Shown: positions 23,638 through 43,486, counted from the stretch's first letter. The stretch: DNA of 64,000 bases from Bacteroidota bacterium (GCA_027484685.1 JAIXSO010000066.1:785-64784); one strand, 5' to 3'. Translations and numbers: made by a program. Notes: a model not told the origin generated them from the sequence alone.

Positions 23638-23658
23638 GATTTTAAATTTTATATTTGA

Positions 23659-26014: not shown

Positions 26015-26045
26015 TCAAATACCTTAAAATTCATATATCCTTTAA

Positions 26046-26082: not shown

Positions 26083-26261
26083 TTTTAAGTTATTAATATA
26101 TACCTCAACCAATTAGCTATTTAACAAATAATCAATTTTTTATAAATAATTGGTATAATAAACCTACCTTTGAAAACCTTTAATTTTTTTCATCGCTAAA
26201 TCTTAATTACAAGCCAAAGCCCTGCAAAAACATTCAGGGCAATAACAATTAATAATAAATA

Positions 26262-26801
26262 ATGGCTAAATCACAAGAAACTTTCAGTAAAAAAGAAAAA
26301 GAAAAATTAAAACTTAAAAAAAGAAAAGAAAAAGAGGAAAAACGCGAAGAGCGCAAAGCTAATGCCGTAAAAGGCCAAAGCCTTGAAGAGATGTTTGCTT
26401 ACGTTGACGAAAATGGTAACATTACCACCACCCCTCCCGATCCTAAAAAACGCAGGGTAGTAAATGCTGAAGACATGCTTATTGGTGTGGCTAAACAAGC
26501 AGCTGCCGAACCTCAAGATTTAATTCGTAAAGGAGTAATAACGTTTTTTAACGAATCGAAAGGATACGGATTTATTAAAGACTTAAAAAGCCAAGAAAGT
26601 GTATTTGTGCATATAAATGGTATTTTAGACCAAGTAAAAGAAGGTGATAAAGTAACCTTTGAAACCGAAATGACTCACAAAGGTGCTAGCGCTGTTAAAG
26701 TAAAACTTGAAGTAGTAGAAAAAGTAAAACCTGCTGCTAAAGTTGAAGAAACTAAAACAGTAGATACCACTGAACTTAAAGTTGACAAACCAACAGAATA
26801 A
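26262..26801 (+). CDS. Cold-shock domain (CSD) protein with Lys/Glu-rich N-terminal extension
   Basis: 179 aa. The central CSD carries the RNP1-like GYGFIKD motif and VFVHINGI. The N-terminal 40 aa are KEKEKLKLKKRKEKEEKREERK. Confidence 0.8.
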   Translation: MAKSQETFSKKEKEKLKLKKRKEKEEKREERKANAVKGQSLEEMFAYVDENGNITTTPPDPKKRRVVNAEDMLIGVAKQAAAEPQDLIRKGVITFFNESKGYGFIKDLKSQESVFVHINGILDQVKEGDKVTFETEMTHKGASAVKVKLEVVEKVKPAAKVEETKTVDTTELKVDKPTE

Positions 26802-26819
26802 TTTTATTTATACCACAAA

Positions 26820-26856
26820 AAAAGCCTACTTAAGTAAACTTAAGCAGGCTTTTTAA
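26820..26856. terminator. Bidirectional terminator between the convergent csd gene and accC
   Basis: Hairpin agcctacttaag/taaa/cttaagcaggct (one mismatch), flanked by an A-run and a T-run. Confidence 0.55.
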
Positions 26857-26874
26857 TTTAAAATTATTTGGTAA

Positions 26875-28221
26875 TTATTTATTTATATCAAATGTATTCA
26901 TAAAAGCAGTTGTAAAATTACCTGCTTTAAAATCCTCGTTTTGCATTAATTTCATTTGCAAAGGAATAGTGGTTTTTAAACCTGGCCCTTCAATAATAAA
27001 CTCACCTAATGCACGTTCCATTTTAATAATTGCTTCTTCGCGTGTTTGCGCACTTACAATCATTTTGGCAATCATACTATCGTAGTTTGAAGGAATGGTA
27101 TAACCTGCATAAACGTGTGTATCTACCCTTACTCCATGTCCACCTGGTTTGTGTAAATAGTCAATTCTTCCTGGAGTTGGTCTAAAGTTATTATAAGGAT
27201 CTTCTGCATTGATACGAACCTCAATACAATGCTTAGTTGGATAATGATCTTTACCACTAATTGGTTGGCCAGCCGCAATTAATATTTGCTCTTTTACTAA
27301 ATCATAATTAATTACTTCTTCAGTAACAGGATGCTCCACTTGAATACGCGTATTCATTTCCATAAAATAGAAATTTCGGTGTTTATCAACCAAAAACTCA
27401 ATAGTACCTAAACCTTCGTATCCAATAGCTGATGCACCTTTTTTAGCTGCCTCACCCATTTTTTCTCTTAACTCTGGAGTCATAAATGGCGAAGGAGACT
27501 CTTCAATTAACTTTTGATGTCTACGTTGAATAGAGCAATCTCTTTCGCTTAAATGGCAAACTTTACCATATTGATCGCCCGCTAACTGAATTTCGATATG
27601 ACGAGGTTCCTCTACATATTTTTCCATGTAAATTCCATCGTTTCCAAAAGCCGCCTTCGATTCTTGTTTGGCACTATCCCAATTTTTTTCAAAATCTTCC
27701 GATTTCCAAATAATACGCATACCTCTTCCACCACCACCGGCAGTAGCTTTAATAATTACAGGATAACCAATTTCCTCGGCTAACTTAATCCCTTCTTCAA
27801 AACTGCCTAATAAACCATCAGAACCAGGAATTACAGGAACTCCAGCTTTTTTCATGGTGTCTTTAGCGTTCGATTTATCGCCCATGGCATTAATCATTTC
27901 TGGGCTTGCGCCAATAAATTTAATACCGTGGTCTTTACAAATTTGGCTGAACTTTGCATTTTCACTTAAAAAACCATAACCCGGATGAATCGCATCAGAA
28001 TTGGTAATTTCGGCTGCAGCTATAATATTAGCCATATTCAAATACGATTGTTGCGAGGGTGGAGGTCCAATACAAACTGCCTCATCAGCAAAACGTACAT
28101 GTAAACTTTCTTTATCGGCAGTACTGTAAACAGCTACTGTTTTAATGCCCATTTCGCGTGCAGTTCTTATTACACGTAAGGCTATTTCGCCTCTATTGGC
28201 AATTAGAATTTTTTTAAACAT
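26875..28221 (-). CDS. accC: Acetyl-CoA carboxylase, biotin carboxylase subunit
   Basis: 448 aa. ATP-grasp fold with GGGGRGM, and [14 protein letters not shown]. The gene is immediately upstream of accB. Confidence 0.95.
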
Positions 28222-28311
28222 AAAGTTTGGTTTGATATTATTTATTAATACAATTAGCCCATAATCAATTGATTAAAGGCTAATAATAAAGGTTTTTTCT
28301 ATGCAATTGAA

Positions 28312-28797
28312 TTACATAGGTTCTACTAAAAACAATGGTTGATCGTACTCTACTGGAGAAGCATTTTCAACTAATATTTTTACTATTTTACCAGAAACTT
28401 CTGATTCAATTTCGTTAAATAATTTCATTGCTTCAACTATACACAAAACTTGACCAACTTTAATTTCATCACCAACATTTACAAAAGGTGGCTTATCAGG
28501 ACTAGGAGTTTTGTAATAAGTTCCAATCATTGGCGATTTGATAGTAATTAAATTACTAGCCGCAGGAGCGGGAGCCGAAGTAACTGCGGGTGTGTGCAAT
28601 GTATTTACAGGTGCTGTTGCAACTGGCGCAGCAGGAGCAATTGCTTGAACCACAGGAGCGGCTGCTTGTTGAATAATGGTAGTTTTTTCTTCTACTTTTT
28701 TAATAGAAACTTTAAAATCACCACGTTCTACCTCTACTTCCGATACGCCACTTTCTGAAACTAATTTGATTAGTTCTTTTATTTCTTTTAATTCCAT
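28312..28797 (-). CDS. accB: Acetyl-CoA carboxylase biotin carboxyl carrier protein
   Basis: 161 aa. Ala/Pro-rich linker. C-terminal biotinyl domain with EAMKLFNEI (the biotinyl-lysine motif). Confidence 0.95.
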
Positions 28798-28903
28798 GTT
28801 CTTCTTTTTTATTTCTAATTGTAAAACTATTTTTTAAAATGTAAATATCAATATTTTTTACAAAATACTTATATAATTATTTAATAATGAGCACAATATT
28901 ATA

Positions 28904-29890
28904 TTAGTAAGCCCACTTTAAATAAATAGCCCCCCAAGTAAAACCACCACCAAAGGCAGCTAATACCAAATTATCACCTTTTTTCAATTTGTTTTCCCAT
29001 TCCCAAAGTAACAAAGGCAATGTTCCACTTGTGGTATTACCAAAATGATCGATGTTAATCATTACTTTTTCTTTAGCAAGGCCCATTCTGTTCGCAGTAG
29101 CATCTATAATTCGTAAATTAGCTTGATGTGGAACCAACCAAGCTACATCATCGGCAGTTAAGTGATTACGTTCCATAATTTCGGCACTTACATCGGCCAT
29201 TCCTTTAACTGCAAATTTAAAAACTGTTTGCCCTTCTTGATACACAAAATGTTCGCGAGCATCAACAGTTTCATGGCTTGCAGGCTTAATGCTTCCGCCA
29301 GCTTTTTGGTGTAAAAAATGACGACCTGATCCATCCACTTTTAAAACCGAATCAATTAAGCCTAAGCCTTCTTCGTTAGGTTCTAACAATACACATCCAC
29401 ATCCATCACCAAAAATTACACAAGTATTTCTTTCGGTATAATCAATAATTGACGACATTTTATCGCCACCAACTACTAATACTTTTTTATAAGCACCGCT
29501 TTGTATAATACGGCTTCCAGTTTCTAAACCAAATAAAAATCCTGAACAAGCAGCTCCTAAATCGTATCCAAAAGCATTGGTAGCACCAATTTTATCGGCC
29601 AATATACAAGCTGACGAAGGAAAAACCATATCAGGGGTTACAGTACAAAAAATGATTAAATCAATTTCTGCAGCTGTTATTCCTCGTTTTTGTAATAAAC
29701 CATTAACCGCTTCTACGGCCATATCTGATGTGCCTAAACCATCAGCCAAAATTCTTCTTTCTTTAATTCCTGTTCTGCTTACAATCCATTCATCGTTGGT
29801 ATCAACCATTTTTTCCAAATCTTTGTTGGTTAAAACTCTAGGTGGTACGTAACCATTAACGGCTGTAATTGCTGCGGTAATTTTTGTCAT
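28904..29890 (-). CDS. fabH: 3-oxoacyl-ACP synthase III
   Basis: 328 aa. Active-site Cys in AACSGFLFG, and His/Asn in HQANLRI and GNTTSGTLP. Confidence 0.95.
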
Positions 29891-29994
29891 TGAATAATAT
29901 TTTTTGCTAAAATAAACTTTATATTCATTTTTTAGAATAAAATTTATTTAACCTATTTATAAAAAAACACCCCTTTTCAGGGGCGATTTTAATT

Positions 29995-30951
29995 TTATTG
30001 AATTGGAACTAAGTTTTTAAACTGTTCACGAATAATATTGCATAAGTCAGATTTTACCACATCACGCGCTGTAAAAATCATATTTTTAAATGCTTTTGCA
30101 TTAGAAATTCCATGACCAATGATAACCGGTGCATTAACTCCTAAAATTGGAGTTCCACCATAATTTTCATAATCAAATCTATCTAAAAAGGCATCTTGGA
30201 TACCTCGTTTTTTCATCACATAATAAAATGATTCGTAAGCTTTTAAGGTTACATTTCCAGTAAAACCTTCACAAACTATCACATCCGATTTATCAGTTAA
30301 CAAATCTCTACCTTCTACATTTCCTACAAAGTGAAAAGCGTTTGACTCTTCCATTAATTGGTGGGCAGAAATGGTAACTAGATTACCTTTTTCTTTTTCT
30401 TCGCCAATGCTTAATAAACCAATACGTGGATCAGAGTAGCCATGAACGTGTTTCATCATTAAACTACCTAATACTGCAAACTGGTACAATACGTCTGGCT
30501 TGCAATCGGCATTGGCACCTACATCTAACAATAATCCAAATTTGCCATTTGGTTTAGGAATAGTGGCTGTAATTGTTGGGCGTATAACACCTTCAATTGG
30601 CTTTACGGTAAACATTGAACCAACTAACATGGCACCAGTATTACCAGCACTCACAAAAGCATCAACTTGTTTACTTGCTAAAAGCTTAAAACCAACAGAA
30701 ATACTTGAATCCTTTTTTTGAGAAATTGCTTTGGTGGGGTGTTCTCCCATTCCAATAACTTCAGTAGTATGCACAAATTCAAACCTTGAATCGCTCACAC
30801 CTTGAGATTGCAATAACTTTTCGGCCTGCTCTTTATCGCCAATTAGCACTATGGTATCATCAGCACCAAGCTCTGCTAAAGCTAAGATAGCGCCTAAAAT
30901 AGCTTCTTTGGGCGCAAAATCGCCACCCATAATATCAAAACCAATTTTCAT
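29995..30951 (-). CDS. plsX: Phosphate acyltransferase
   Basis: 318 aa, PlsX family (MKIGFDIMGGDFAP, HGYSDPRIGLLSIGEE). Conserved plsX-fabH arrangement. Confidence 0.95.
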   Translation of the reverse strand: MKIGFDIMGGDFAPKEAILGAILALAELGADDTIVLIGDKEQAEKLLQSQGVSDSRFEFVHTTEVIGMGEHPTKAISQKKDSSISVGFKLLASKQVDAFVSAGNTGAMLVGSMFTVKPIEGVIRPTITATIPKPNGKFGLLLDVGANADCKPDVLYQFAVLGSLMMKHVHGYSDPRIGLLSIGEEKEKGNLVTISAHQLMEESNAFHFVGNVEGRDLLTDKSDVIVCEGFTGNVTLKAYESFYYVMKKRGIQDAFLDRFDYENYGGTPILGVNAPVIIGHGISNAKAFKNMIFTARDVVKSDLCNIIREQFKNLVPIQ

Positions 30952-31043
30952 TTGCTTGTTGTTTGGGGTTAATTTAAAAAACGAAAAACGAAAACGCTTT
31001 AAAAAAGCACTTTCGTTTTTAGTATTTGATTTAAGCTAAGTGC

Positions 31044-31229
31044 TTAAACATCTGATTTCATATCAGGGAAAACATGTTTTCCGCGGTAGAAACCATCAGC
31101 AGTAACGCGGTGGCGCATGTGAACTTCACCCGATGTTGAATCGATTGACAATGTTGGAACAGCACCTTTATAATGTGTTCTGCGCTTATCGCGTCTTGCT
31201 TTTGAGATTTTTCGTTTAGGATTTGGCAT
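31044..31229 (-). CDS. rpmF: 50S ribosomal protein L32
   Basis: 61 aa, MPNPKRKISKARRDKRRTHYK. Conserved position upstream of plsX. Confidence 0.95.
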   Translation of the reverse strand: MPNPKRKISKARRDKRRTHYKGAVPTLSIDSTSGEVHMRHRVTADGFYRGKHVFPDMKSDV

Positions 31230-31250
31230 TTTACTTCTCTCCTCGTGTTA

Positions 31251-31781
31251 TCAGTTTTTGTTGTAAAAATTTTTTAATGCATCCCAGCGTGGGTCTGATT
31301 CAGGATTTTCATCTTCTTCCTCATCGCCTTCATCGGTTTTTATTTTGTCAATGAATGCTTGGTTGTGTTCTTTATCGGCATCCTCACAACTAATTTTGGT
31401 TGGAATAGCTAATAAAAAATAATCATATATAAATTGCTTAAAATCAAACTCATGTAAGCCTTTTGGTAAATAAATGATTTCATCGTCATTTAAATTTTCA
31501 GGCCCATCAATTAATTTTATCAATAAATAATACGTTTTATCTAAAGGTAAATCAAATTCATCTAAGCAAGTATCGCAAGTAGTAAATACGCTGCCAGTAA
31601 TTGTAAACTGCATTTCGTACATACTTTCTTTTTTATCAAGCATAACCTCACATTGCGCGTTTGCGCTCACAAAAGGCTTATCTGTAACTTCATCGTACAA
31701 ATCGGCACCAATTGGAAACGTAAATTCGTTTTTTCCAAAACGGAGTTTATTGAACTCAACTATGTATGTTTTTGTTTTCAA
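31251..31781 (-). CDS. YceD/DUF177 family protein
   Basis: 176 aa with the C-terminal CxxC pair (CDTCLDEF...) typical of YceD. Conserved yceD-rpmF-plsX-fabH synteny. Apparent TTG start. Confidence 0.8.
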   Translation of the reverse strand: MKTKTYIVEFNKLRFGKNEFTFPIGADLYDEVTDKPFVSANAQCEVMLDKKESMYEMQFTITGSVFTTCDTCLDEFDLPLDKTYYLLIKLIDGPENLNDDEIIYLPKGLHEFDFKQFIYDYFLLAIPTKISCEDADKEHNQAFIDKIKTDEGDEEEDENPESDPRWDALKNFYNKN

Positions 31782-32127
31782 CCTTAAAATAAAGCCTACA
31801 AATGTAATTTTTTGTGAATAAAATATTAGCTTTTTTTTTAAAAAATATAAAAAAAAGTAGTTATTGAGCCCGTTTTCAGAATTAGCACCTGATTTTCATA
31901 TAATTACAGAAACATCTTTATTTGCTTACAAATTTAGTTTGTACTAAGCCATACTATAAAATTAACAACATATTCAAAATATTAAAACCTTAAAACTACC
32001 CCGTACTAAAAGCAAACTATATTTTATTACCAAATTTTTATAATTAACCAAATGTATAACAACTAAAACACCTATTAAAACATTACTTTTGAAAACTATT
32101 TCAAACCCCTTTTGTTTTAAGCATTAA

Positions 32128-34341
32128 ATGAAACATAATCACCAAATTGTTAGATTAATTGAAGAGTTTTCAAAAGCATCTAACCATATTATTGACCACG
32201 TAGAATTACAAAAAGCGAAAGCTAGATACCAGCAAAACCTGTCGAATAATTTCGATACTTTTTTTGAGCAATTAATCAATATTGGAACTTTTGCAAAATA
32301 TGCCTTTGAAATAAGAACGGCAACTAAAGCTGATTTGGAAGCATTTTTAACTAAAAACACTTTCCCGATAATTTATTTTAAAAAAAATCAGCAAGTATTA
32401 ACTCCAGTTTTACTAAAGCATTTTCAAACTGAAAGTTACCAAACAATAGCTTTTGAAGATGATAAAGAACAAAGCACCAATTACAAAAACATTGCCGATA
32501 TAGGCAACGATGCAAAAACCATTAATCAATTGGTTTTAGAGAACAATTATATAAACCATGATGGAGAAAATGAACATATTTTATTTATTACAGGTTTTCA
32601 TATTAGTTCAATGCTTAACTTAGAGCATAAAAAAGACCTGACTCCATTTCAACGATTTGTGAGTTTACTAAAAGCTGAAAAGCGCGATATTAAATACATT
32701 TATTTCTTTGCTATATTAATAGCTATAATTAATTTAGCATTGCCGCTCGGAGTGCAGGCCATAGTTGGTTTAATATCTGGTGGTTTATTATTAGAATCGG
32801 TTGTTATATTAATAGCCTTAGTTATTGCGGCTACTGGTCTTTCGGGTTATTTGCAAATTCAACAATTAAAAATGGTAGAAATACTCCAACAGCGGGTATT
32901 TGCCAATGTAACTTTTGAATTTGCATGGCGATTGCCTCGCATAAAAATTGAAAGTTTGCTTAAGCATTATACACCTGAAATGGTAAACAGATTTTTTGAT
33001 GTGTTAAATGTTCAAAAATCTTTACCTAAAATTTTGATTGATTTAACTGCTGCTTTAATTCAAATTTTGTTTGGCTTATTACTTTTGTCACTTTATCATC
33101 CTGTATTCATTGGTTTTGGCCTTTTTATTTTAGTAATCATCCTAATTATATTTTACACCACAGGGAAAAAAGCCCTTGAAACCAGTATTTACGAATCGAA
33201 ATACAAGTACAAAGTGGCTTATTGGTTACAAGAAATTGGCAGGAGCATTACCTCATTTAAACTAGCGGGAAACTCAAATTTACCCATACAAAAGGCTGAC
33301 AACTTATTGGCTAATTATTTAAAATACAGAAATAAACATTTTGCTATTTTGGTAAAACAATATGCAGCAATTGTTTCGTTTAAAACATTAATTACAGCTT
33401 CTTTATTAATTTTGGGTAGTTTTTTGGTGGTAAATAGGCAAATAAACCTAGGTCAGTTTGTAGCTGCTGAATTAATTATAGTTTTAATTATTAATTCTGT
33501 AGAAAAATTAATTTCAACACTAGAAGTAGCTTATGATTTATTAACGGCTTTAGATAAAATAGGCCATGTAACCGATTTAGAGACTGAAAGCAATGCAGGA
33601 CGTGAATTATACGACATAGGAATAGAAGAAAAACTTTTGTTAAAAACTACTAACCTAAGTTTTAAATACCCAAGTAGTAAAAAAAGCACCTTAACCAATG
33701 TAAATTTTGAAATTGGAAAAGGCGAAAGAATTGCTATAACTGGCCACAACGATAGTGGAAAAACAACTTTTATTAAAACCTTATCGGGCTTGTATTGCAA
33801 CTTTGAAGGATCGTTTACCTTAAATGGTGTTTCATTACGTGAGTTAAATATTGATTCTTATAGAGGCATTGTTGGTGATAATTTATCGCAAGATGATGTG
33901 TTTGAAGGCACTATTGAGGAGAATATTGTAATGGGACGTGCTGGAATTTCTTTTAAAGATGTAATGAATGCAGTTGAAAAATCGTGTTTAACAGAGTTTT
34001 TAGCACAATTAGAAGATGGATTGCAAAGCAATGTAAATCCAGGTGGAACTAATTTTCCTAAAAGTGTTATTCAGAAAATATTATTGGCACGCAGTTTTGT
34101 GCAAAAACCAAAGCTATTAATTATTGACGACTTTTTTTATAATATGAACCAAAAAGAAAGCTTGACTTTGGTAAACAATATTTTTGAAAATCCTGATTGG
34201 GCAATAATTATTGTTTCATCGCAAATAGGTATTTTGCAAAAATGCAACCGTGTTTATTTAATGCAAAATGGTACATTTACTCAAAACGATACTTATCAAA
34301 ACTTGAGTCAAAATAACATGTTAAGCCCGTTTATCAATTAA
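32128..34341 (+). CDS. ABC exporter (N-terminal C39-like domain without catalytic Cys, then TMD, then NBD) with degenerate ATPase motifs
   Basis: 737 aa. An N-terminal ~170-aa cytoplasmic domain, a 6-TM exporter domain, then an NBD. Walker A is present (GHNDSGKTT). The signature is NPGGT instead of LSGGQ. Walker B is LLIIDD-F, so the catalytic Glu is replaced. The D-loop and the H-loop His are not conserved. Confidence 0.85.
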   Translation: MKHNHQIVRLIEEFSKASNHIIDHVELQKAKARYQQNLSNNFDTFFEQLINIGTFAKYAFEIRTATKADLEAFLTKNTFPIIYFKKNQQVLTPVLLKHFQTESYQTIAFEDDKEQSTNYKNIADIGNDAKTINQLVLENNYINHDGENEHILFITGFHISSMLNLEHKKDLTPFQRFVSLLKAEKRDIKYIYFFAILIAIINLALPLGVQAIVGLISGGLLLESVVILIALVIAATGLSGYLQIQQLKMVEILQQRVFANVTFEFAWRLPRIKIESLLKHYTPEMVNRFFDVLNVQKSLPKILIDLTAALIQILFGLLLLSLYHPVFIGFGLFILVIILIIFYTTGKKALETSIYESKYKYKVAYWLQEIGRSITSFKLAGNSNLPIQKADNLLANYLKYRNKHFAILVKQYAAIVSFKTLITASLLILGSFLVVNRQINLGQFVAAELIIVLIINSVEKLISTLEVAYDLLTALDKIGHVTDLETESNAGRELYDIGIEEKLLLKTTNLSFKYPSSKKSTLTNVNFEIGKGERIAITGHNDSGKTTFIKTLSGLYCNFEGSFTLNGVSLRELNIDSYRGIVGDNLSQDDVFEGTIEENIVMGRAGISFKDVMNAVEKSCLTEFLAQLEDGLQSNVNPGGTNFPKSVIQKILLARSFVQKPKLLIIDDFFYNMNQKESLTLVNNIFENPDWAIIIVSSQIGILQKCNRVYLMQNGTFTQNDTYQNLSQNNMLSPFIN

Positions 34342-34368
34342 TTATTCACCCCAATTTAAATTTAAACA

Positions 34369-35739
34369 ATGGACCAAAATCCTTATAACAATACCTTAAA
34401 AGAACTGAAAGGAAGTAATCTTTACACTGTTCAATTGGTAAATACACCTAAAAAATTTAAAACCATTAGAAACTGGCTCCTAGGAATTTTTTCGCTATTG
34501 TTTCTTTGTTTGTTTTTACCGTGGCAACAAAACATAAACGGAAAAGGAAAAGTTACGCCATTTGCACCCGAAGATAGACCACAAAATGTACCTTCAATTA
34601 TTGGTGGAAGAATTGAAAAATGGAAAGTAGTAGAAGGTCAATTTGTAAAAAAAGGAGATACTTTAGTAATTATTAGTGAGGTAAAAGAAAAGTTTTTTGA
34701 TCCTGAATTATTGGTAAGGACTCAAAAGCAAATTGCCAACAAAGAAGATGGACTAAAAGCTAAAAACCGAAAAATAGTTGCTTTAGAAAAACAAATAGAT
34801 GCACTTAAAAACAGTGTGGCCATTAAACTTAAAATGGCTAAAAACAAAGTTTTGCAAGCACAGTATGGTGTAAAAGCTGAAAAAGCCAATTTTGATGCTG
34901 CTAAAACCAACGAAGAACTTTCGCGTAACCAATTTGAGCGATTGAACGAGTTGTATAAAAAAGGTTTGGCATCGTTAACCGAAATTCAGAACAGAACCAA
35001 TAAAATGCAAGAGGCAAAATCGAAAGCTATAGAAAGTGAAAATAAATACGACAAGGCTCAAAATGAATTGATAAATGCCCGTATAGATTTAAACTTTATA
35101 GAGGCAGAATATTTAGATAAAATTTCGAAAGCTGAAAGTATTTTAGAAGAAACTGCAGGTGAACTTTTTGAAAGTCAAGCTGAACTTATAAAGTTAAGAA
35201 TTGAATACAGTAATTTACAATTAAGGAGTGGATTTTATGCCATTAAAGCTCCTCAAGATGGTTATTTAGTGCAAGTGTTAAAAGCAGGTATTGGCGAAAC
35301 CATAAAAGAAAATGAAAACTTAGCAACCATAGTTCCGGCTAATACCAAAACAGCCGTTGAAATGACCGTAAGAGCCTTAGATATGCCCCTTTTATATAAG
35401 GGCTGTAAGGTTCGTATCCAATTTGATGGGTGGCCCGCTTTGGTATTTAGTGGATGGCCAAGTGCAAGTGTTGGAACTTTTGGAGGCGTAGTGCAAGCCA
35501 TAGATAGAAATGCTGACGAAAAGGGTAATTTTAGAATTTTAGTTACACAAGATCCTAACGATGTGCCATGGCCTGAGCTAATACGTGCAGGTGGCGGAGT
35601 TTATGGTTGGGCTATGCTTAACAGTGTGCCTGTTTGGTATGAATTATGGCGCCAATTTAACGCTTTTCCGCCTAATTTTATGGACGAAGCAAATCAAATG
35701 AAAAAAGATGCAGATAACAAAACCAAGAAAGATAAATAG
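34369..35739 (+). CDS. HlyD-family membrane fusion (periplasmic adaptor) protein
   Basis: 456 aa. N-terminal TM anchor, long coiled-coil region, and beta-barrel/lipoyl-like C-terminal domains. It is immediately downstream of the ABC gene. Confidence 0.9.
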   Translation: MDQNPYNNTLKELKGSNLYTVQLVNTPKKFKTIRNWLLGIFSLLFLCLFLPWQQNINGKGKVTPFAPEDRPQNVPSIIGGRIEKWKVVEGQFVKKGDTLVIISEVKEKFFDPELLVRTQKQIANKEDGLKAKNRKIVALEKQIDALKNSVAIKLKMAKNKVLQAQYGVKAEKANFDAAKTNEELSRNQFERLNELYKKGLASLTEIQNRTNKMQEAKSKAIESENKYDKAQNELINARIDLNFIEAEYLDKISKAESILEETAGELFESQAELIKLRIEYSNLQLRSGFYAIKAPQDGYLVQVLKAGIGETIKENENLATIVPANTKTAVEMTVRALDMPLLYKGCKVRIQFDGWPALVFSGWPSASVGTFGGVVQAIDRNADEKGNFRILVTQDPNDVPWPELIRAGGGVYGWAMLNSVPVWYELWRQFNAFPPNFMDEANQMKKDADNKTKKDK

Positions 35740-35741
35740 CT

Positions 35742-37184
35742 ATGAAATTTAAATTGATTCCATTAGGCTTATTTCTTTGCATTTGCAATGCAATTTGGGC
35801 ACAAGATTCCTCTGTATTTTCATTTCAAGACTTTTACATACAAGTAACCAATTATCACCCAGTTTCAAAACAAGCAAACCTACTTTCTCAAAGCGCTAAA
35901 GCTGAATTGCTAGCAGCACGTGGAGCCTTTGACCCTGTAATTAGCACCACATACCAAAACAAAACTACTGATGGTAAAAACAGTTTCACTTATTTTGAAC
36001 CGCAAATAAAAATACCAACTTTAATTGGGGTAGATGTAAAAGCAGGATACGACCAAAGTGATGGAATAGCAGTAAGTAACGATAGAATAAAAATAATTGA
36101 AAATAATGGCCAATTTTCACCTCAATTTGGCGAATATGGAATGCTTTATGCAGGAGTTAATGTGCCTATTTTACGTGGTTTGCAAACTGATAGCCGCAGA
36201 GCTGTATTGCGCCAAGCACAGTATTTACAAGGACTGAATGAGGCCGAGCGTGTGAAAGTAATTAATAAATTACTTTTAAGTGCAGCCAAAGATTATTGGG
36301 AATGGCAATTGGCTTACGAAAAACTTAAATTGATGCAGCTTAGTTATAATTTAGCCGAAAACCGATTTAACTTTATAAGCAGCCGCATAAAAGGTGGCGA
36401 AGACAAACCTATTGATAGTGTAGAAGCTTTGATTGAATTAAAACGCAGAGAAACGCTTTTATTAGAAACAGAAGTTGAATTTAAAAATGTTAGTTTAAGC
36501 ATAAGCAATTATTTATGGAGTAACAAAAATGAACCTTTACAATTAAAAGCAACCGTTTATCCTTCGGCAATCGGAACTGAACTAAAAAAGATAAGTAGTG
36601 ACTCATTGCAACGCATGGTTAACTATACCGAAGGTAATCATCCTGAATTGATGAAATTGCAGTTTAAAAACAAGCAATTACAAATTGATAGAAAATTAGC
36701 TATTGAAAACATAAAGCCTCAACTTAATATTGAATATTATCCTTTTCAAACCTACAGCAAAGGCACTCAAAACGATGTAAACAATATTTTTAACCGACAG
36801 TATAAATTTGGTGCAAGTTTTTACAGTAGTTTGTTTTTACGTAAAGAAAGAGGAAAACTACAACAAGCCAATTTAAAACTAAAAAATATTGATTTTGAAA
36901 CTCAATTAACCAAACGTGAATTGGTAAACGAGGTTTTTGCTAACTACAACAATCTTTTAAACTTAGAACAGCTTATAGGTATTCAGGAAGTTTTGGTTAA
37001 AAATGCTTCCACACTGCGCGATGCAGAACAAACTAGATTTGAAAATGGAGAAAGTTCACTTTTTTTAGTGAATACCCGCGAACGTAGCTTAATTGATGCC
37101 CAAATAAAACAAGCTGAAATTAAAAGCAAATACGCCAAAGCCAAGGTTCAACTGCAATGGGCTAGCGGAATTAGGCTCTTTTAA
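35742..37184 (+). CDS. TolC-family outer membrane efflux protein
   Basis: 480 aa. Signal peptide and two tandem repeats of the TolC alpha-helical/beta-barrel architecture. It completes the ABC-MFP-OMF tripartite set. Confidence 0.85.
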   Translation: MKFKLIPLGLFLCICNAIWAQDSSVFSFQDFYIQVTNYHPVSKQANLLSQSAKAELLAARGAFDPVISTTYQNKTTDGKNSFTYFEPQIKIPTLIGVDVKAGYDQSDGIAVSNDRIKIIENNGQFSPQFGEYGMLYAGVNVPILRGLQTDSRRAVLRQAQYLQGLNEAERVKVINKLLLSAAKDYWEWQLAYEKLKLMQLSYNLAENRFNFISSRIKGGEDKPIDSVEALIELKRRETLLLETEVEFKNVSLSISNYLWSNKNEPLQLKATVYPSAIGTELKKISSDSLQRMVNYTEGNHPELMKLQFKNKQLQIDRKLAIENIKPQLNIEYYPFQTYSKGTQNDVNNIFNRQYKFGASFYSSLFLRKERGKLQQANLKLKNIDFETQLTKRELVNEVFANYNNLLNLEQLIGIQEVLVKNASTLRDAEQTRFENGESSLFLVNTRERSLIDAQIKQAEIKSKYAKAKVQLQWASGIRLF

Positions 37185-37467
37185 AGCGATAGTATAAGCT
37201 AAAAATAAGCGCAGTTACTAAATTAAAAAACAGTCCATCTGCAATTAGTGAATAAACAAACCAATTGGTGTTTGGAAACGAATTGCCACCAACCCAAAAT
37301 TGCTGATAATAAGTAAATGGAAAACCAATTTTTAGCAGATAGTATTCATCTTTACTAAAATGATGAAATGGATTGGTATAAGCTAAAAATTGAATAAATG
37401 AGGTGCTTAAAAACAATAAACCAGCAATTGTTGATACACAAAATGCTGGTTTAAAAAATAATTTCAT
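37171..37467 (-). CDS. Small hypothetical membrane protein (98 aa)
   Basis: Three predicted TM segments. It converges on and overlaps the TolC stop by 14 bp. No family recognised. Confidence 0.35.
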   Translation of the reverse strand: MKLFFKPAFCVSTIAGLLFLSTSFIQFLAYTNPFHHFSKDEYYLLKIGFPFTYYQQFWVGGNSFPNTNWFVYSLIADGLFFNLVTALIFSLYYRFKRA

Positions 37468-37484: not shown

Positions 37485-39617
37485 TTATTTTCCAAATGCT
37501 GCTTTTCCGTCATCTAAGAATTTAACAAAGGCAGCTTCGTCAGTATCAAAAAAACGTGGGCCTGAAAGTTGTTTTTCGTCCCCATCAATTACTATATATT
37601 GTGGCTGTGCAGCAAAATGATATTTTGTAATTTGCAAATCACTGTTTTGCTCTGCAATAGTCTGCTTCAACTTACCATCTCTTGCTGAAGTGTACCATTC
37701 ATTTTCGGGCAATTCAAAACGTTCATCTACATATAACGAAACTATTATAAAATCGTTTTTCAGACGTTTTAACACCTCGGGTTTGGCCCAAACATATTCT
37801 TCCATTTTACGACAATTTACGCAAGAATGACCTGTAAAATCAATAAATATTGGTTTGCCAGTTGCTTTTGATGCAGCTAAAGCTTCTTTGTAATCAAAAT
37901 AACCTGTTAAGCCATGAGGTAAATGAAGGAAATCAGAATGTTTGGTTTTAGGTGCTGAATTGCTGGATGGTTGAATGGTTGAATGGTTGTTATCATTTCC
38001 CAAAATAAAATCCTGTGTACTCATTGGGGGCAATAAACCCGAAAGCGCTTTTAAAGGCGCACCAAACAGACCCGGAATCATGTAAACAGCAAAACAAAAC
38101 GAAAGGCAGGCCAATAAAAATCTTGGAACACCTACATAAGGCATATCGCTATCGTGGCTAAATTTAATTTTACCCAATAAATAACAACCTAACAAAATAG
38201 CAAGTACAATCCAAATGGCTAAATAAATTTCTCTATCTAATATTCTCCAATGGTAAACTACATCAGCATTTGAAAGGAATTTAAATGCAAAAGCAAGTTC
38301 TACAAAACCCAAAACTACTTTAACTGAATTTAACCAACTTCCACTTTTTGGCATGCTTTGTAACCAACTTGGAAATATAGCAAACAATGTAAATGGTAAT
38401 GCAAATGCTAAAGAAAAACCAAACATGGCTACAATTGGTCTTAAAAACTCACCTTTAGTAGCTGCTTGTCCTAATACTGCGCCTGCAATTGGACCAGTGC
38501 ATGAAAACGAAACTAAAGTTAGCGTAAAGGCCATAAAAAATATACCACCAAAACTTCCTAAACTCGATTTTTTATCAATAGAATTAACAAAACCGCTTGG
38601 TAATGTAATTTCAAATAATCCTAAAAATGAAATACCAAAAACGAAGAAAATTGCAAAAAACAACAAATTGGGAAGCCAATGCGTACTTATAATATGACCA
38701 GCATTTTCGCCAAATATAACAGATACAATGAGTCCAATAACAGTGTAAATAAATATAATAGACCCTCCAAAAGTTAAACCTTTTAAAATACCTTCCATTT
38801 TGGTAGCACTTTTTTTGGTAAAAAACGAAACCGTCATAGGAATCATAGGGTAAACACAAGGAGTGGCTAAGGCTGCAAAACCAAAACCAAATGACAATAA
38901 AAATAATGCAAGCAAGCTTGAGTTTTTTATTTTATCTTCTAAATTATCTTCCGTTTTACTTGCTGACACAGCTGTTATAGCAGCTTTATCAGAATTAGTT
39001 GATACATTGATATCCTTCTGTTTTATTGGAGTTTCTGCTCCTACTAATTCGGCTGGTTTTGTTTCGGCTGATGCTTCAATTACTTCAGGAGTTGTCTCAG
39101 GTGTTGCTGGTGTTTCAGCCGAGGCAGTAACTTGTAATCCTTTTAACTCATATTCTTGCTCGTAAGGAGGCATACACATACCTGTAACCTCTGAACATTC
39201 TTGAAAATAAATGCCCACTTTTACTTTAGGTTTAGCCGAAAGTAACTTAATTTTTTGAATGAATTTAGCAGTACCTTTCATTACACTTACTGTACCTTTC
39301 CAAACTTCTTCGTAATGTTTATGGCTACCCACAGGTTTGGTTTTGCCAACCAAGGCATAACTTGGGTCTTTTTTCCAAGTAAATTCAGCAGCTATTGGCC
39401 CCAAATTAGGGTCCATATCATTGCTATACATGTACCAATCTTTTTCAATTACACTGGTTAAAACAATTTCTATTTCATCACCAATTTTAGCAGTTGGTTT
39501 GCTGCTAACCATTTTCCAAACAGGTTCTTTTTTAAGCTGCGCAAAAACAGCCATAGATGAAATACTGAATAACAGTACAAGGAGTAAAAATTTGTTTCTT
39601 AAACTAATCATATGCAT
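37485..39617 (-). CDS. dsbD: Thiol:disulfide interchange protein DsbD (protein-disulfide reductase)
   Basis: N-terminal DsbD-alpha domain after the signal peptide MISLRNKFLLLVLLFSISSMAVFAQ. Ala/Glu/Pro/Thr-rich linker. An 8-TM cytochrome-c-biogenesis-type core with a CxxxxP-type Cys (ATPCVYPMIP). C-terminal thioredoxin domain with CVNC. The start was moved to an internal ATG that gives a proper signal peptide. Confidence 0.85.
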   Translation of the reverse strand: MHMISLRNKFLLLVLLFSISSMAVFAQLKKEPVWKMVSSKPTAKIGDEIEIVLTSVIEKDWYMYSNDMDPNLGPIAAEFTWKKDPSYALVGKTKPVGSHKHYEEVWKGTVSVMKGTAKFIQKIKLLSAKPKVKVGIYFQECSEVTGMCMPPYEQEYELKGLQVTASAETPATPETTPEVIEASAETKPAELVGAETPIKQKDINVSTNSDKAAITAVSASKTEDNLEDKIKNSSLLALFLLSFGFGFAALATPCVYPMIPMTVSFFTKKSATKMEGILKGLTFGGSIIFIYTVIGLIVSVIFGENAGHIISTHWLPNLLFFAIFFVFGISFLGLFEITLPSGFVNSIDKKSSLGSFGGIFFMAFTLTLVSFSCTGPIAGAVLGQAATKGEFLRPIVAMFGFSLAFALPFTLFAIFPSWLQSMPKSGSWLNSVKVVLGFVELAFAFKFLSNADVVYHWRILDREIYLAIWIVLAILLGCYLLGKIKFSHDSDMPYVGVPRFLLACLSFCFAVYMIPGLFGAPLKALSGLLPPMSTQDFILGNDNNHSTIQPSSNSAPKTKHSDFLHLPHGLTGYFDYKEALAASKATGKPIFIDFTGHSCVNCRKMEEYVWAKPEVLKRLKNDFIIVSLYVDERFELPENEWYTSARDGKLKQTIAEQNSDLQITKYHFAAQPQYIVIDGDEKQLSGPRFFDTDEAAFVKFLDDGKAAFGK

Positions 39618-39764
39618 TTGTTTTAAAAAATTGGGTAAGGGCAAATGTAAAAGTATTTTACAAAACACAATTATCAATATTTGCTTAAATTGACATATTG
39701 ATGTCAAATCATAAAAAAACCCCGAACTTTTTCAAATTCGAGGTTTTAAATATTTATAGGTTAA

Positions 39765-40328
39765 TTATTTTTTAGGTGCAACTGGAGGTGCAGCTTTTGG
39801 AGCAGGTGGCGCTTCAACAATTCCTAATTTCTTTTTTACCATGGCTGTAACATCATCGCCTTCTGGTTTGTAAAGCATTCCAGCTGTATTGCTATCAAAA
39901 ACATAAGCATAACCTGATTCTTTAGCTACTTGAGCAATTGCAGCTTTTGCTTTGTCAACTATCGGCTTTAATAATTCAGATTCTTTTTTACGACTGTCTT
40001 CTACAGCCGATTGTTGAAACTCTTGAATACGCTCTTGTAATTGGCGTAATTCTTTTTCTTTAAACTCGCGCATTGTAGGGCTCATAGTACCTTGATTTTT
40101 TTCATATTCTTTGTACTTAATTTGAAACTCTTCTTGTAATTTACCTAAATCATCTTCTAACTGTTTTTGGTATTTTTCCATATCAGCATTTGCTTTTTTA
40201 TACTCTGGCATTGCTACCATAACTTCTTGCAAATCTACATAACCTAATTTTTGAGCATTTGCTACAAATACTCCACCGCAAAGCGCAAATACCATTGCCA
40301 ATGCAAATTTTCTAATGATGCTTTTCAT
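39765..40328 (-). CDS. OmpH/Skp-family periplasmic chaperone
   Basis: 187 aa with a signal peptide. Coiled-coil OmpH fold. Ala/Pro-rich C-terminal tail. Confidence 0.85.
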   Translation of the reverse strand: MKSIIRKFALAMVFALCGGVFVANAQKLGYVDLQEVMVAMPEYKKANADMEKYQKQLEDDLGKLQEEFQIKYKEYEKNQGTMSPTMREFKEKELRQLQERIQEFQQSAVEDSRKKESELLKPIVDKAKAAIAQVAKESGYAYVFDSNTAGMLYKPEGDDVTAMVKKKLGIVEAPPAPKAAPPVAPKK

Positions 40329-40356
40329 TTCTGTTTATTATTTATTGTTTTTAAAA

Positions 40357-40941
40357 TTATCGTTTACCTCCACCCGTGTTTGGAGCCGGATTTTCAGGTT
40401 TTAATTGGTTTTTAGTTGGTTTATCAATTGCTATGCCAAGTTCTTTTAAAACTTCATCGCTCATATCGTATTTAGAATTGGTGTAAAGCATTACTACCTC
40501 GCCACCTTTAGCAAATATAAAGTCGTAAGCACGAGCTTTGGCCACTTTTTGAACTGCATCGTAAACTTTATCTTGAATAGGTTTTACCAATTCCTGACGT
40601 TTTTTAAACAATTCTCCTTCGTAACCAAACTTTTTATTTCTAAAATCTCTCAATTCATCTTGCTTAACTTTTAATTCTTCAGCGCGTTTCTTTTTCATTT
40701 CATCGCTCATTAAAATTTGCTCAGCATTAAACTCCTTTTCAGCCTTTTCAAGTTCTTGCATTTTACGCTCCATTTCTTTTTGCCAATCTTCGCTCATGGC
40801 ATCTAATTGCTTTTGGGCCGAACGATACTCAGGCAACAAATCTAAAATATACTCTGTATCTACATAAGCAAATTTTTGAGCATAAACTTTGCTAGCACCA
40901 AGTGTTAGCAAAACTGTAAACAAAACAAATATTTTTTTCAT
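40357..40941 (-). CDS. OmpH/Skp-family periplasmic chaperone (second paralogue)
   Basis: Start moved to the ATG that gives the signal peptide MKKIFVLFTVLLTLGASKVYAQ. Tandem skp paralogues downstream of bamA are typical of Bacteroidota. Confidence 0.85.
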   Translation of the reverse strand: MKKIFVLFTVLLTLGASKVYAQKFAYVDTEYILDLLPEYRSAQKQLDAMSEDWQKEMERKMQELEKAEKEFNAEQILMSDEMKKKRAEELKVKQDELRDFRNKKFGYEGELFKKRQELVKPIQDKVYDAVQKVAKARAYDFIFAKGGEVVMLYTNSKYDMSDEVLKELGIAIDKPTKNQLKPENPAPNTGGGKR

Positions 40942-40981
40942 AATAGCTAAAACAATTTTTAGTGTTTTTAGTATAATTTTT

Positions 40982-43486
40982 TTAAAACTGTTGTCCAATT
41001 AAGAAATGGAAATTACCTCCATTAACACCTTGACGCAATGGAACATCATCAATACCCCATCCATAATCCAAACCAATCATACCAAACATTGGCAAGAAAA
41101 TGCGAACACCCATACCATAACTTCTGTATAATTTAAAAGGGTTAAAATCTTTAAACTGCAATTGCGCATTTCCAGCTTCAACAAATACTAACGGAAACAC
41201 AGTTGCCTGAGGATTTAAAGAAATTGGATAACGCAACTCCATGGTATATCTATTATAAACTGTGGCACCTTTAGGTGCAGTTTGTCCCGTATTTGGATCA
41301 GTATATAATGGAGTTAAAGTATTGTCTTGGTAACCACGTAAAGCTACTAACTCACGGCCATCTAAATTAAAACCAGTAAGACCTGCACCACCAACCCAAA
41401 AGCGTTCAAAAGGTGTTATTCCTAAACTGCTGTTATAATTTCCAATGGCACCAAAGTTAACGCGGGTCATAAATACTAAATCGCCAAAAATTCTATTAAA
41501 AAACGTAGCATCAAATTTCCATTTATGAAACTCTAACCAGCGCATGTTTTGCGATGTATTAACATTGGTAAATAATGAATATGGAGGTGTAAGTTGTAAC
41601 GACAACGAAATATTTGAACCAGAACGTGGATAAATAATTTGGTCGGTAGAGTTTCGCCCTAATATCATCCTAAAGCTAATATTGTTTGAAACACCCTGTG
41701 CAATAGACGAAATATAAGGCAATCCAGTTGAGCTATACTTGTGATCGTATTGCTGAAAACTACCTTGATATTGTAACACAAAATAATCATCAGGCCATTT
41801 TAAACGTTTACCTAAACCTACAGTTAAACCAGTAGTAAATAAACCTGTACTACGCGAATCTTCGCTTGAAAAACCATTGGTTTGACGAGAATGGAAAACT
41901 GAAACACTTAAAGCATTTGGTTTTTTACCACCTAGCCAAGGTTCAGTGAAAGATGCTGAGTAAGATTGAAAAAAGGTTCCATTGGTTTGCGCTCTTAACG
42001 AAATACGTTGACCATCGCCACTAGGAATTGGATTCCAAGAGCTAGCTCTTGAAACTTTACGTGCTGAAAAATTATTAATGGTTAAACCCAAAGTACCAAT
42101 AATCATACCTGCTCCCCAACCACCCGAAAGCTCAATTTGGTCGTTTGCACGCTCTTCCACTTTATACTCAATATCAACAGTTCCTGTTGCTGGGTTTGGA
42201 ACAGGATTAACACCTAAAGCTTCGGGGTTAAAGTATCCAATTTGGCTTAATTCACGCAAACTTCTGGTAATATCAGAACGACTAAATAATTGACCTGGTT
42301 TAGTACGCAATTCGCGTAGAATAACGTGGTCACTAGTTTTGGTATTTCCCTTAACAGTTACCTTATTAATTCTTGCTTGTTCGCCTTCGGTAATTCTAAT
42401 TTCCAAATCAATACTATCGTTTTCAATTAAAACTTCTACAGGTTCAATTCTAAAAAACAAGTAGCCATCGTCCATATACAAGGTACTAACATCCAACCCT
42501 TGCTGACTCATGTTCAAGCGTTCATCAAGCAAGGTTTGATCGTAAATATCGCCTCGCTTAATATTTAAAACCCTATGTAAATCAGCATCCTTATACTTAG
42601 AATTACCAATAAACTTAATGTTTCTAAAATAATATTTTAAACCTTCGTTTATTACCATTTTTATGTTCACATTTTGGTCTTTTCCTCTCCAAACTGAATC
42701 AGACACAATTTGAATATCGCGGTAACCCAAACTCAAATATTTTTCAATAATCTTCTGTTTATCGTCACTGTAATTGTCTTCAATAAACTTTGATTTGGCA
42801 AAAAGTCTTTTTTTCCATTTAGTTTCTTTCATTTGAGCCCTAACTTGTTTATCGGTTAAAGCCGTATTACCTTCAATAATTATGTTATCAATTTTTATTT
42901 TAGGCCCAGGAGTAACAAATATTTTTAAACGATTGGTATTTTTTACAGCATTGTAATCAACCAATTCAAATTTAACTTTTGTATCAGAACGGCCTTTGTC
43001 AGAGTAAAATTTCTTAATTTCACGCTCTACAGTTACCAATAAATTTTGATTGATGATTTGACCCGATTTCATGGTAAGCGCTTCGCTAATGTCTTCGGCC
43101 TTACCCTTTCTTACACCAATAATACTAAAAGTAGATAATCGAGGTTTTTCTTTTAAAGCTAATTCCAACCAAATTTTTTCATCTTCAATTTTCTGGACTT
43201 TTAGCTTAATATCATCAAATAGTTTTTGTTTCCAAAGAGAAGTAATGGCCTTTGTAACATCATCAGAAGGAATTTTAATTTTTTGCCCAATAGAAATACC
43301 TGCTATAATTTGAATAACACTTTTGTCGTAATAGCTAGTACCTGTTACCTCAAAACCTGCTACAATATAAGTTTTTGCTGCACCATAATCAATTGTTGCA
43401 TAGTTATTTACCGAATCAGCTTGAGAAAAGCCAACCTTTGTAAAACCTAAAATTATTAATGCAATTAATGCAATTTTTTTTATCAT
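40982..43486 (-). CDS. bamA: Outer membrane protein assembly factor BamA
   Basis: About 834 aa. Five POTRA-like domains, then an Omp85 C-terminal beta-barrel ending ...HFLIGQQF. Start set to MIKKIALIALIILG. Confidence 0.95.
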   Translation of the reverse strand: MIKKIALIALIILGFTKVGFSQADSVNNYATIDYGAAKTYIVAGFEVTGTSYYDKSVIQIIAGISIGQKIKIPSDDVTKAITSLWKQKLFDDIKLKVQKIEDEKIWLELALKEKPRLSTFSIIGVRKGKAEDISEALTMKSGQIINQNLLVTVEREIKKFYSDKGRSDTKVKFELVDYNAVKNTNRLKIFVTPGPKIKIDNIIIEGNTALTDKQVRAQMKETKWKKRLFAKSKFIEDNYSDDKQKIIEKYLSLGYRDIQIVSDSVWRGKDQNVNIKMVINEGLKYYFRNIKFIGNSKYKDADLHRVLNIKRGDIYDQTLLDERLNMSQQGLDVSTLYMDDGYLFFRIEPVEVLIENDSIDLEIRITEGEQARINKVTVKGNTKTSDHVILRELRTKPGQLFSRSDITRSLRELSQIGYFNPEALGVNPVPNPATGTVDIEYKVEERANDQIELSGGWGAGMIIGTLGLTINNFSARKVSRASSWNPIPSGDGQRISLRAQTNGTFFQSYSASFTEPWLGGKKPNALSVSVFHSRQTNGFSSEDSRSTGLFTTGLTVGLGKRLKWPDDYFVLQYQGSFQQYDHKYSSTGLPYISSIAQGVSNNISFRMILGRNSTDQIIYPRSGSNISLSLQLTPPYSLFTNVNTSQNMRWLEFHKWKFDATFFNRIFGDLVFMTRVNFGAIGNYNSSLGITPFERFWVGGAGLTGFNLDGRELVALRGYQDNTLTPLYTDPNTGQTAPKGATVYNRYTMELRYPISLNPQATVFPLVFVEAGNAQLQFKDFNPFKLYRSYGMGVRIFLPMFGMIGLDYGWGIDDVPLRQGVNGGNFHFLIGQQF

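Follow-up and report, generated by a model that had tools for sequence, protein, structure and literature searches.

A conserved tripartite operon of Bacteroidota whose ABC-exporter-fold protein carries a catalytically degenerate nucleotide-binding domain

A 64,000-nucleotide stretch of DNA from a Bacteroidota bacterium (GCA_027484685.1, JAIXSO010000066.1:785-64784; hereafter the window) carries, at positions 32128-37184, three genes for an inner-membrane protein with the fold of an ATP-binding cassette (ABC) exporter, a HlyD-type periplasmic adaptor and a TolC-like outer-membrane factor (OMF). Here we show that this locus is an intact and selectively maintained tripartite operon, whose ancestry lies with the type I secretion systems (T1SSs) and the peptidase-containing ABC transporters (PCATs), and that the nucleotide-binding domain (NBD) of its ABC protein is degenerate in its catalytic motifs. 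The reading that we favour, and to which we give a probability of about 0.55, is that of a T1SS-derived tripartite exporter whose NBD would be a nucleotide-binding or purely structural pseudo-ATPase.

The NBD comprises residues 504-728 of the ABC protein (positions 33637-34311, + strand), and its motifs were assigned by HMMER alignments in which the full protein, or just its NBD, was matched to both halves of ABCB1 and P-glycoprotein (P-gp). The Walker A motif, or P-loop, GHNDSGKTT is intact at residues 539-547 (33742-33768), as had been stated in the initial annotation, which was made from the sequence alone, and the A-loop tyrosine is kept as Tyr514 (33667-33669). Other elements are replaced. 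The Walker B motif reads LLIIDD (residues 663-668) and is followed by FF and then by YNMN, the whole covering positions 34114-34149; it retains the Walker B aspartate, Asp667, and has an aspartate, Asp668, at the position of the catalytic glutamate. The D-loop SALD is replaced by YNMN (residues 671-674), and the H-loop position is taken by Ser698 (34219-34221) instead of histidine. These departures in the Walker B motif, the D-loop and the H-loop had all been recognized in the initial annotation. It had also proposed NPGGT as the signature; here the degeneracy was rightly seen and the position was not. NPGGT (residues 637-641; 34036-34050) corresponds to the GxxG that precedes the signature, and lies six residues upstream of the true signature position, where eight concordant HMMER domain alignments all place FPKSV (residues 643-647; 34054-34068) opposite LSGGQ. 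The Q-loop glutamine is aligned with Ser587, which is adjoined by Gln588, and neither position is conserved in the family. A canonical LSGGQ, hhhhDE or H-loop histidine was found nowhere else in the NBD: the only SGG of the ABC protein is located in its first transmembrane (TM) helix, TM1, and there is no histidine after the Walker B motif. The alignments thus leave the proposed motif substitutions standing. Closure of the ATP sandwich and hydrolysis of the nucleotide depend on these elements. Because the catalytic base, the H-loop histidine, the D-loop and LSGGQ are gone, to which the Q-loop glutamine may perhaps be added, the canonical ATP-hydrolysis power stroke cannot, as judged at the level of sequence, operate in this protein. 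A homodimer would have two degenerate ATP sites, as had been anticipated, with the signature defect and the Walker B and H-loop defects on one chain. Since the P-loop and the A-loop are kept, and are nearly invariant in the subclade of the window protein, the NBD probably still binds nucleotide as a structural or regulatory ligand.

The comparison with orthologues was based on two samples. The first consists of 81 species-level loci, that is, the window operon plus the best 80 of at least 595 matches in species-representative genomes; these 80 come from Cytophagales, Cyclobacteriaceae, Saprospiraceae, Chitinophagales and Flavobacteriales, together with one metagenome-assembled genome (MAG) labelled Akkermansia. 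The second was obtained by searching 1.84 billion protein cluster representatives (clusters at 50% identity) with the membrane domain only, and consists of 141 diverse representatives, with a mutual identity of at most 50%, taken among the matches listed. A protein search returned many full-length homologues that are 41-90% identical to the window protein, and those that are named come from Bacteroidia, Cytophagales or Bacteroidota. The family of the ABC protein is essentially confined to Bacteroidota. The membrane-domain search gave just 2100 cluster matches at E<=1e-3, 1182 of them at E<=1e-30, and because this is so few among 1.84 billion, the membrane domain defines a discrete family, without cross-matches to ordinary ABC exporters.

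In the 81 loci, the H-loop position is never histidine (0/81; it is asparagine in 57 and serine in 9) and the Gly-Gly of the signature is likewise absent from every locus (0/81). The position of the catalytic glutamate (668) is aspartate in 67/81 and glutamate in 4/81 loci, and that of the Walker B aspartate (667) is aspartate in 12/81, asparagine in 41 and glutamate in 19. Lys545 of the P-loop, on the other hand, is retained in 79/81 loci and in 115/116 close homologues, and the A-loop aromatic residue (Tyr or Phe at position 514) in 76/81 loci. Among the 141 representatives, SGGQ or SGGE does not occur (0/141) and an H-loop histidine is present in 16. A strict Walker A motif, G-x4-GK[ST], is present in only 66 of them (47%), and in many the P-loop is unrecognizable; for instance, P0169 and P0222 align without gaps to the GHNDSGKTT of the window protein, reading 'MSADPEATV' and 'NSEDSDAYR', respectively, and both are followed by an adaptor gene and then an OEP-type channel gene. 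For two other members, P0208 and P0211, the contigs were too short to reveal the gene context. The replacements can themselves be conserved. In the Cytophagales and Cyclobacteriaceae (loci L003-L060), the H-loop region has the motif V-S-N-D-P, aligned to residues 696-700 of the window protein (Ser697 in 74, Asn698 in 57 and Asp699 in 67 of the 81 loci), and Walker B typically reads 'LILND'; the conservation of this replacement motif suggests a new, selected function for the H-loop site in that branch. Taken together, the degeneration is conserved in both samples, and it is a trait of the family, not a local accident.

The NBD is normally the most conserved part of an ABC exporter. In this family conservation is inverted relative to ordinary ABC exporters, and the most conserved part of the protein is the transmembrane and intracellular-helix domain (residues 185-482; 32680-33573, + strand). 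Across the 81 loci, the membrane domains share a mean pairwise identity of 0.60, the NBDs one of 0.40 and the N-terminal domains (N-domains) one of 0.26, and 25% of the membrane-domain columns are at least 95% invariant, compared with 5% of those of the NBD. Likewise, in the 141 representatives, columns with at least 90% conservation number 56/298 in the membrane domain and 5/224 in the NBD, where the five are G561, N599, G631, R655 and P661, which are structural or interface residues and in no case catalytic. The conserved residues of the membrane domain include the membrane-embedded polar residues Gln210, Lys419, Gln443, Glu448, Glu459 and Lys460, the Tyr323-His324 pair in a periplasmic turn, and many closely spaced positions in the intracellular helices; conservation is very high throughout the intracellular helical domain and in each of the three periplasmic turns. 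Glu448 (33469-33471, + strand) is 99% conserved in the family, and conservation and hydropathy place it as a membrane-embedded acidic residue in TM6, so that it may be a candidate for coupling to protons or to the substrate. Selection points in the same direction. The closest relative, locus L001, encodes an ABC protein that is 89% identical to that of the window, and the ratio of nonsynonymous to synonymous substitution (dN/dS) between the two is 0.053 over the whole protein; by domain, it is lowest in the membrane domain (0.014) and reaches 0.053 in the NBD and 0.094 in the N-domain. These values are approximate because dS is about 1, near saturation. All three domains are therefore under purifying selection.

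The three genes of the operon are co-oriented on the + strand, at 32128-34341, 34369-35739 and 35742-37184, with intergenic gaps of 27 and 2 bp. The order of ABC, membrane fusion protein (MFP) and OMF genes had been correctly read in the initial annotation, the open reading frames (ORFs) lying exactly where it had placed them and their Pfam domains agreeing with it. The ABC protein has 737 amino acids and consists of the N-domain, a six-TM type IV exporter domain and the degenerate NBD; Pfam finds ABC_membrane with 34.7 bits and ABC_tran with 63 bits, the latter above its cut-off of 25 bits and matching residues 522-668 to profile positions 1-134 of 137. The MFP (456 amino acids; HlyD_3 and Biotin_lipoyl_2 in Pfam) has, according to its hydropathy, a single N-terminal TM anchor at residues ~32-51. 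Its score of 84.8 bits with TIGR01843 (type_I_hlyD) falls under the cut-off of 208, and its only sequence relatives of solved structure in the PDB are the T1SS adaptors HlyD (8dck_C, E 7.8e-5) and LipC (5nen). The OMF (480 amino acids) has an N-terminal signal-like sequence and matches OEP with 95.4 bits in two repeats. Upstream of the operon lies an intergenic region (31782-32127, + strand) that presumably holds the promoter, and of which just the final ~50 bp ahead of the ATG show conservation with L001; a scan for promoters of the sigma-70 type and for terminators showed no enrichment over shuffled sequences, a scan that does not cover Bacteroidota promoters. In the 81 loci, the MFP gene follows the ABC gene in 79 and the OMF gene follows the MFP gene in 76.

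The N-domain (residues 1-172; 32128-32643, + strand) had been described as a cysteine-less, C39-like domain. The absence of cysteine is beyond doubt, as there is none in the first 185 residues. The resemblance to C39, by contrast, does not hold by sequence and appears as a weak yet consistent match of the predicted fold. Thus, Pfam gave nothing for this domain at E<=10, PF03412 included, and a family profile of the domain searched against PDB sequences gave only spurious matches to S100-A4 (E>=0.025). The AlphaFold model of residues 1-175 (pLDDT 85.7, pTM 0.81) has a C39/papain-like predicted fold, for which the top Foldseek match in the PDB is the peptidase domain of PCAT1 (E 8e-3, TM-score 0.48/0.54), followed by the peptidase domains of ComA, the Vibrio C39-like domain 3b79 and other papain-like proteases, and these top matches are weak overall (E 8e-3 to 0.1, TM-scores 0.36-0.54). 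The full-length model (pLDDT 77) has as its best matches PCAT1 (9azl_A, E 2.7e-30) and HlyB, over 700-741 columns that include the N-domain. Conserved N-domain residues in the family alignment are limited to P80, P93, F60, F84 and F157, and there is no conserved column that could represent a catalytic cysteine or histidine. The best reading of these fold matches is that the N-domain may be a dead C39-like domain. It is absent from about half of the family, which has a short form of ~570 amino acids, and it is thus an accessory module that this half has dispensed with.

Apart from the genes of the operon itself, a single gene recurs in its vicinity among the 80 related loci, namely one for a TetR_N protein of ~227 amino acids (Pfam 28-31 bits), which lies directly upstream and co-oriented in 51/80 relatives, those with long as well as those with short ABC forms. 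This position suggests an inducible efflux role. In some loci, a second, paralogous copy of the TetR gene lies a few kb away (L009, 3804-4484; L030, 15153-15836; L038, 233-916).

A partner for the ABC protein was sought in the window and in the related loci. The 64-kb window contains no other ABC NBD; the only other ORF with a P-loop in a regular-expression scan encodes the FG-GAP protein at 20161-21966, which is not an ABC protein. In 5/81 loci, BLAST gave either ABC ATPases of a small, soluble kind or one more ABC match; their positions vary, so that these candidates are not conserved, and no second half-transporter is conserved beside the operon in the 81 loci. The search for a substrate gave a similar picture. 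No ORF with a double-glycine (GG) leader was found in the window flanks, which hold housekeeping genes, and the 81 loci have no conserved cargo-like ORF close to the operon. We also clustered the 1704 ORFs of 25-110 amino acids that lie within 2.5 kb of the 81 operons: the clusters present in at least seven loci turned out to be antisense shadows of the TetR gene, and the others occur in at most five loci each, one of them being an ORF of ~100 amino acids just downstream of the OMF gene. The initial annotation, which had seen no substrate gene in the flanks, was therefore right on this point. Its view of the system as resembling a bacteriocin or RTX exporter is weakened without being overturned: there is no conserved gene for a substrate near the operon, the N-domain is missing in about half of the family, and the commonest neighbour is TetR.

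The suggestion in the initial annotation of a non-hydrolysing or regulatory ABC protein gains considerable strength from the family-wide disappearance of the catalytic motifs, to which about half of the members add that of the P-loop itself. According to the reading that we favour, the inner-membrane component would be a homodimer of the type IV ABC-exporter-fold protein with two non-catalytic sites, and the working part would be the extremely conserved membrane and intracellular-helix domain, which would hand the substrate to the HlyD-type adaptor and from there to the TolC-like channel. Energy would come from something other than canonical hydrolysis: very slow non-canonical turnover, gating by nucleotide binding only, or, as the most concrete candidate, the proton gradient through Glu448 and its neighbours. 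To judge from the TetR gene of the relatives, a small or amphipathic molecule whose export is inducible would be a likelier substrate than a protein or peptide cargo encoded beside the operon. A bolder proposal, which we put forward tentatively and consider possible rather than probable, is that this family, essentially confined to Bacteroidota, has abandoned ATP hydrolysis altogether, and that its fold is driven otherwise, most plausibly by the proton gradient through Glu448, Lys419, Glu459/Lys460 and Gln443, with the NBD as a structural or nucleotide-sensing pseudo-ATPase.

Several observations weigh against these views. In heterodimeric exporters that are already known, degenerate sites with an aspartate at the catalytic position and a serine or asparagine at the H-loop are still capable of a low residual ATPase activity, and slow hydrolysis by the window protein, in which Walker A, the A-loop and Asp667 are kept, must be allowed for. 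Because the P-loop is near-invariant in the window's subclade, nucleotide presumably still matters there. The members that lack a P-loop are distant relatives of the window protein (~41% identity) and may work differently. The idea of proton coupling draws only on the conservation of polar residues and on a hydropathy plot, and the AlphaFold models, which reach moderate confidence, represent monomers. Finally, no TetR gene is present anywhere in the 64 kb of the window, so that the case for efflux is drawn from the relatives only.

How else might this operon be explained? It could encode a working ATP-driven exporter of the T1SS or bacteriocin type, which would hydrolyse ATP in a non-canonical way, with Asp668 as the base and serine or asparagine at the H-loop, and whose cargo would be encoded elsewhere. 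[quoted passage not shown] It does not sit well with the joint, family-wide loss of every one of the five elements by which the gamma-phosphate is sensed or attacked, nor with the finding that about half of the family lacks a P-loop yet keeps the tripartite operon; moreover, the CLD is missing in about half of the family, and not one cargo gene is conserved beside the operon in the 81 loci. In another explanation, the operon would specify no pump but a regulatory, sensory or structural trans-envelope complex, for instance a gated passive conduit or a tether between the inner and outer membranes, in which the ABC fold would be a scaffold and nucleotide binding a switch, as in CFTR and SUR. The ATPase motifs are lost while the domain architecture is strictly kept, the intracellular helices and the three periplasmic turns are very highly conserved, and at least one member is an orphan without an MFP or OMF gene nearby, all of which would fit. 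The tight conservation of the MFP and OMF genes beside the ABC gene, a TetR regulator typical of inducible efflux operons, and the lack of any attached sensor or output domain make this explanation, in our judgement, even less likely than the ATP-driven exporter.

The initial annotation had alternatively proposed that the ABC protein pairs with an unlinked partner. A canonical half-transporter encoded elsewhere would then supply the active ATP site, and precedents exist in the well-known heterodimeric exporters with one degenerate site, which have similar substitutions (PMC12038006, PMC5216877). Those pairs, however, split the Walker B/H-loop defects and the signature defect over their two subunits, whereas here both classes of defect are on the same chain, so that even a canonical partner would not restore a consensus site; and their partner genes are adjacent, whereas none is conserved in the 81 loci or present in the 64-kb window. 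An unlinked partner is accordingly very improbable. As for the weak Pfam scores of the ABC protein (63 bits for ABC_tran and 34.7 bits for ABC_membrane), these might be taken as a sign of a decaying pseudogene, or of motif loss through sequencing or assembly error. The ORF is full-length, dN/dS lies at 0.014-0.09 in all three domains, and hundreds of independent genomes carry these substitutions as well; the dN/dS values and this recurrence rule the explanation out.

The surroundings of the operon differ from locus to locus. In the window, the upstream flank carries accC, accB, fabH, plsX, rpmF and yceD on the opposite strand, and a convergent envelope-biogenesis cluster lies immediately downstream (37485-43507, - strand), with genes for a DsbD-like thiol:disulfide interchange protein (740 amino acids), two tandem OmpH/Skp-like proteins and BamA. 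In the other 80 loci, yceD, plsX, fabH and the DsbD, OmpH and BamA genes never recur beside the operon, and we therefore treat this fatty-acid and envelope neighbourhood as coincidental. The genes upstream in L001 (1-8913) are entirely different from those at 20000-32127 of the window, with only the ~50 bp before the ATG being shared, and because of this mismatch the operon must have moved, or its surroundings have been rearranged, between close relatives.

Some further observations concern individual members of the family and other parts of the window. P0150, in which the P-loop is destroyed and Pfam finds ABC_membrane alone, is an orphan without an adaptor or OMF gene nearby (L082, 5797-8735; L083, 1581-4519; L084, 142-3080). 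It is preceded, at a distance of 15 bp, by a PlsC-type acyltransferase gene, with an EamA transporter gene further upstream in L082 and L083; a lipid-related role may be hinted at in this branch. The label 'uncultured Akkermansia sp.' is attached to L056 (contig CAZQKN010000001.1, 924 kb), a locus with TetR, short-form ABC, MFP and OMF genes, which reflects either a binning or labelling error or horizontal transfer. In the window, a putative ORF for a hydrophobic protein of 98 amino acids (37171-37467, - strand) shares 14 bp with the end of the OMF gene on the opposite strand and has neither a Pfam match nor a homologue in the 80 loci. Four large predicted cargo proteins of type IX secretion, which confirm that the chromosome is that of a member of the Bacteroidota, are encoded in the window: a PKD protein of 1984 amino acids with a CHU_C domain (45637-51591, - strand), a DUF7948 protein with CHU_C (53218-56007, + strand), the FG-GAP protein mentioned above, with Por_Secre_tail (20161-21966, - strand), and an S8 subtilase with He_PIG repeats and Por_Secre_tail (9098-11614, - strand). 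The lowest GC content of the window, 0.247 as against ~0.33, is found at 18001-20000; this stretch contains an ORF (18021-19883, - strand) for a protein of 620 amino acids that is rich in Asn, Lys and Tyr, has a hydrophobic N-terminus and gives no Pfam match; the gene may have been acquired from elsewhere or be evolving fast. Unrelated to the exporter is a hybrid histidine kinase (1987-4479, - strand), which has TPR repeats at its N-terminus and a receiver domain at its C-terminus.

ABC exporters are defined by the ATP-driven dimerisation of their NBDs, and to our knowledge degenerate ATP sites are otherwise known only where a second, competent site remains. The family described here has lost its catalytic motifs altogether, and often the P-loop too, with its membrane domain under tighter constraint than its NBD and its adaptor and channel kept. 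If our reading is true, the fold of type IV exporters lends itself to being powered anew or put to another purpose, and the family offers a natural system for parting nucleotide binding from hydrolysis; if it should prove independent of ATP, it would be the first ATP-independent 'ABC' tripartite pump. In either case, it flags a conserved, uncharacterised envelope-spanning export route in Bacteroidota, for which the present annotation of its members as double-glycine-peptidase bacteriocin exporters or peptidase domain-containing ABC transporters is misleading.

Full-text literature searches found no published description of this exporter family, and a 2021 Chem Rev review of tripartite systems and T1SSs mentions degenerate sites for heterodimers only. 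Homologues are annotated by JGI as 'bacteriocin/lantibiotic exporter with double-glycine peptidase domain', and other public labels are 'peptidase domain-containing ABC transporter' and 'hypothetical protein'. The best NCBIfam models for the ABC protein are NHLM_micro_ABC1, LssB, bacteriocin_ABC, PrtD and HlyB, all of which score four- to six-fold under their curated cut-offs (174.8 vs 853.3 for the PCAT model TIGR03796, 158.8 vs 693.1 for the LssB-type TIGR03375, 132.6 vs 523.85 for the bacteriocin_ABC model TIGR01193 and 125.2 vs 725.55 for the HlyB-type TIGR01846). These best models, the structural matches to PCAT1, HlyB and HlyD, and an adaptor related to HlyD and LipC bear out the T1SS/PCAT-like architecture of the initial annotation. 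The operon thus has the architecture of HlyB/HlyD/TolC or of a PCAT, and it falls outside both groups by curated scores, by its catalytic residues and by the absence of a linked cargo.

Like HlyB-HlyD-TolC of E. coli, the window system combines a type IV ABC-exporter fold with an N-domain that lacks the catalytic cysteine and that is, in the window protein, putatively C39-like, a TM-anchored HlyD-type adaptor and a channel of the TolC family, and its full-length model matches HlyB (8dck_A) with a TM-score of 0.74 over 741 columns. The NBD of HlyB is fully canonical and its ATPase activity is essential, whereas the window NBD lacks the signature, the catalytic glutamate, the D-loop and the H-loop. 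Furthermore, the haemolysin operon includes the gene for its cargo, HlyA, which has no counterpart linked to the window operon, and most relatives of the window operon have a TetR regulator, unlike the haemolysin system. Among the PCATs (PCAT1, ComA and LahT), PCAT1 is the best structural match at full length, and the peptidase domains of PCAT1 and ComA are the best fold matches for the N-domain; the PCATs differ in that the window N-domain has no catalytic cysteine or histidine, no gene for a GG-leader peptide lies nearby, and the NBD is degenerate. With the efflux pumps EmrAB-TolC and MacAB-TolC, the operon shares the combination of an inner-membrane transporter, a HlyD-family adaptor and an OMF, and in 51/80 relatives an adjacent TetR gene; the window transporter, in contrast, is neither of the MFS, RND nor MacB type, and the TetR gene is missing from the window.

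As regards the loss of catalytic motifs, heterodimeric exporters with one degenerate site, such as TM287/288, TmrAB, BmrCD and MsRv1273c/72c, are well known (PMC12038006, PMC5216877). They share with the window protein the change from glutamate to aspartate in Walker B, a non-histidine H-loop and a deviant signature. Their defects, however, are divided between two adjacent genes and leave one consensus site, whereas in the window all defects are on a single chain; much of the window family also lacks the P-loop. The substitutions thus resemble those of the degenerate sites of heterodimers, but no consensus site can exist here. CFTR and SUR (ABCC) are ABC proteins that use a degenerate site, by binding nucleotide there, for gating or regulation and not for transport; these are eukaryotic single chains that have one competent site and no tripartite context. 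Finally, SbmA/BacA, which is proton-driven and whose mycobacterial relative Rv1819c carries an NBD, is a precedent for an ABC-exporter-like membrane fold that works without ATP hydrolysis. SbmA is an importer that has lost its NBD entirely and has no adaptor or outer-membrane partner, whereas the window protein keeps the NBD fold within a tripartite exporter.

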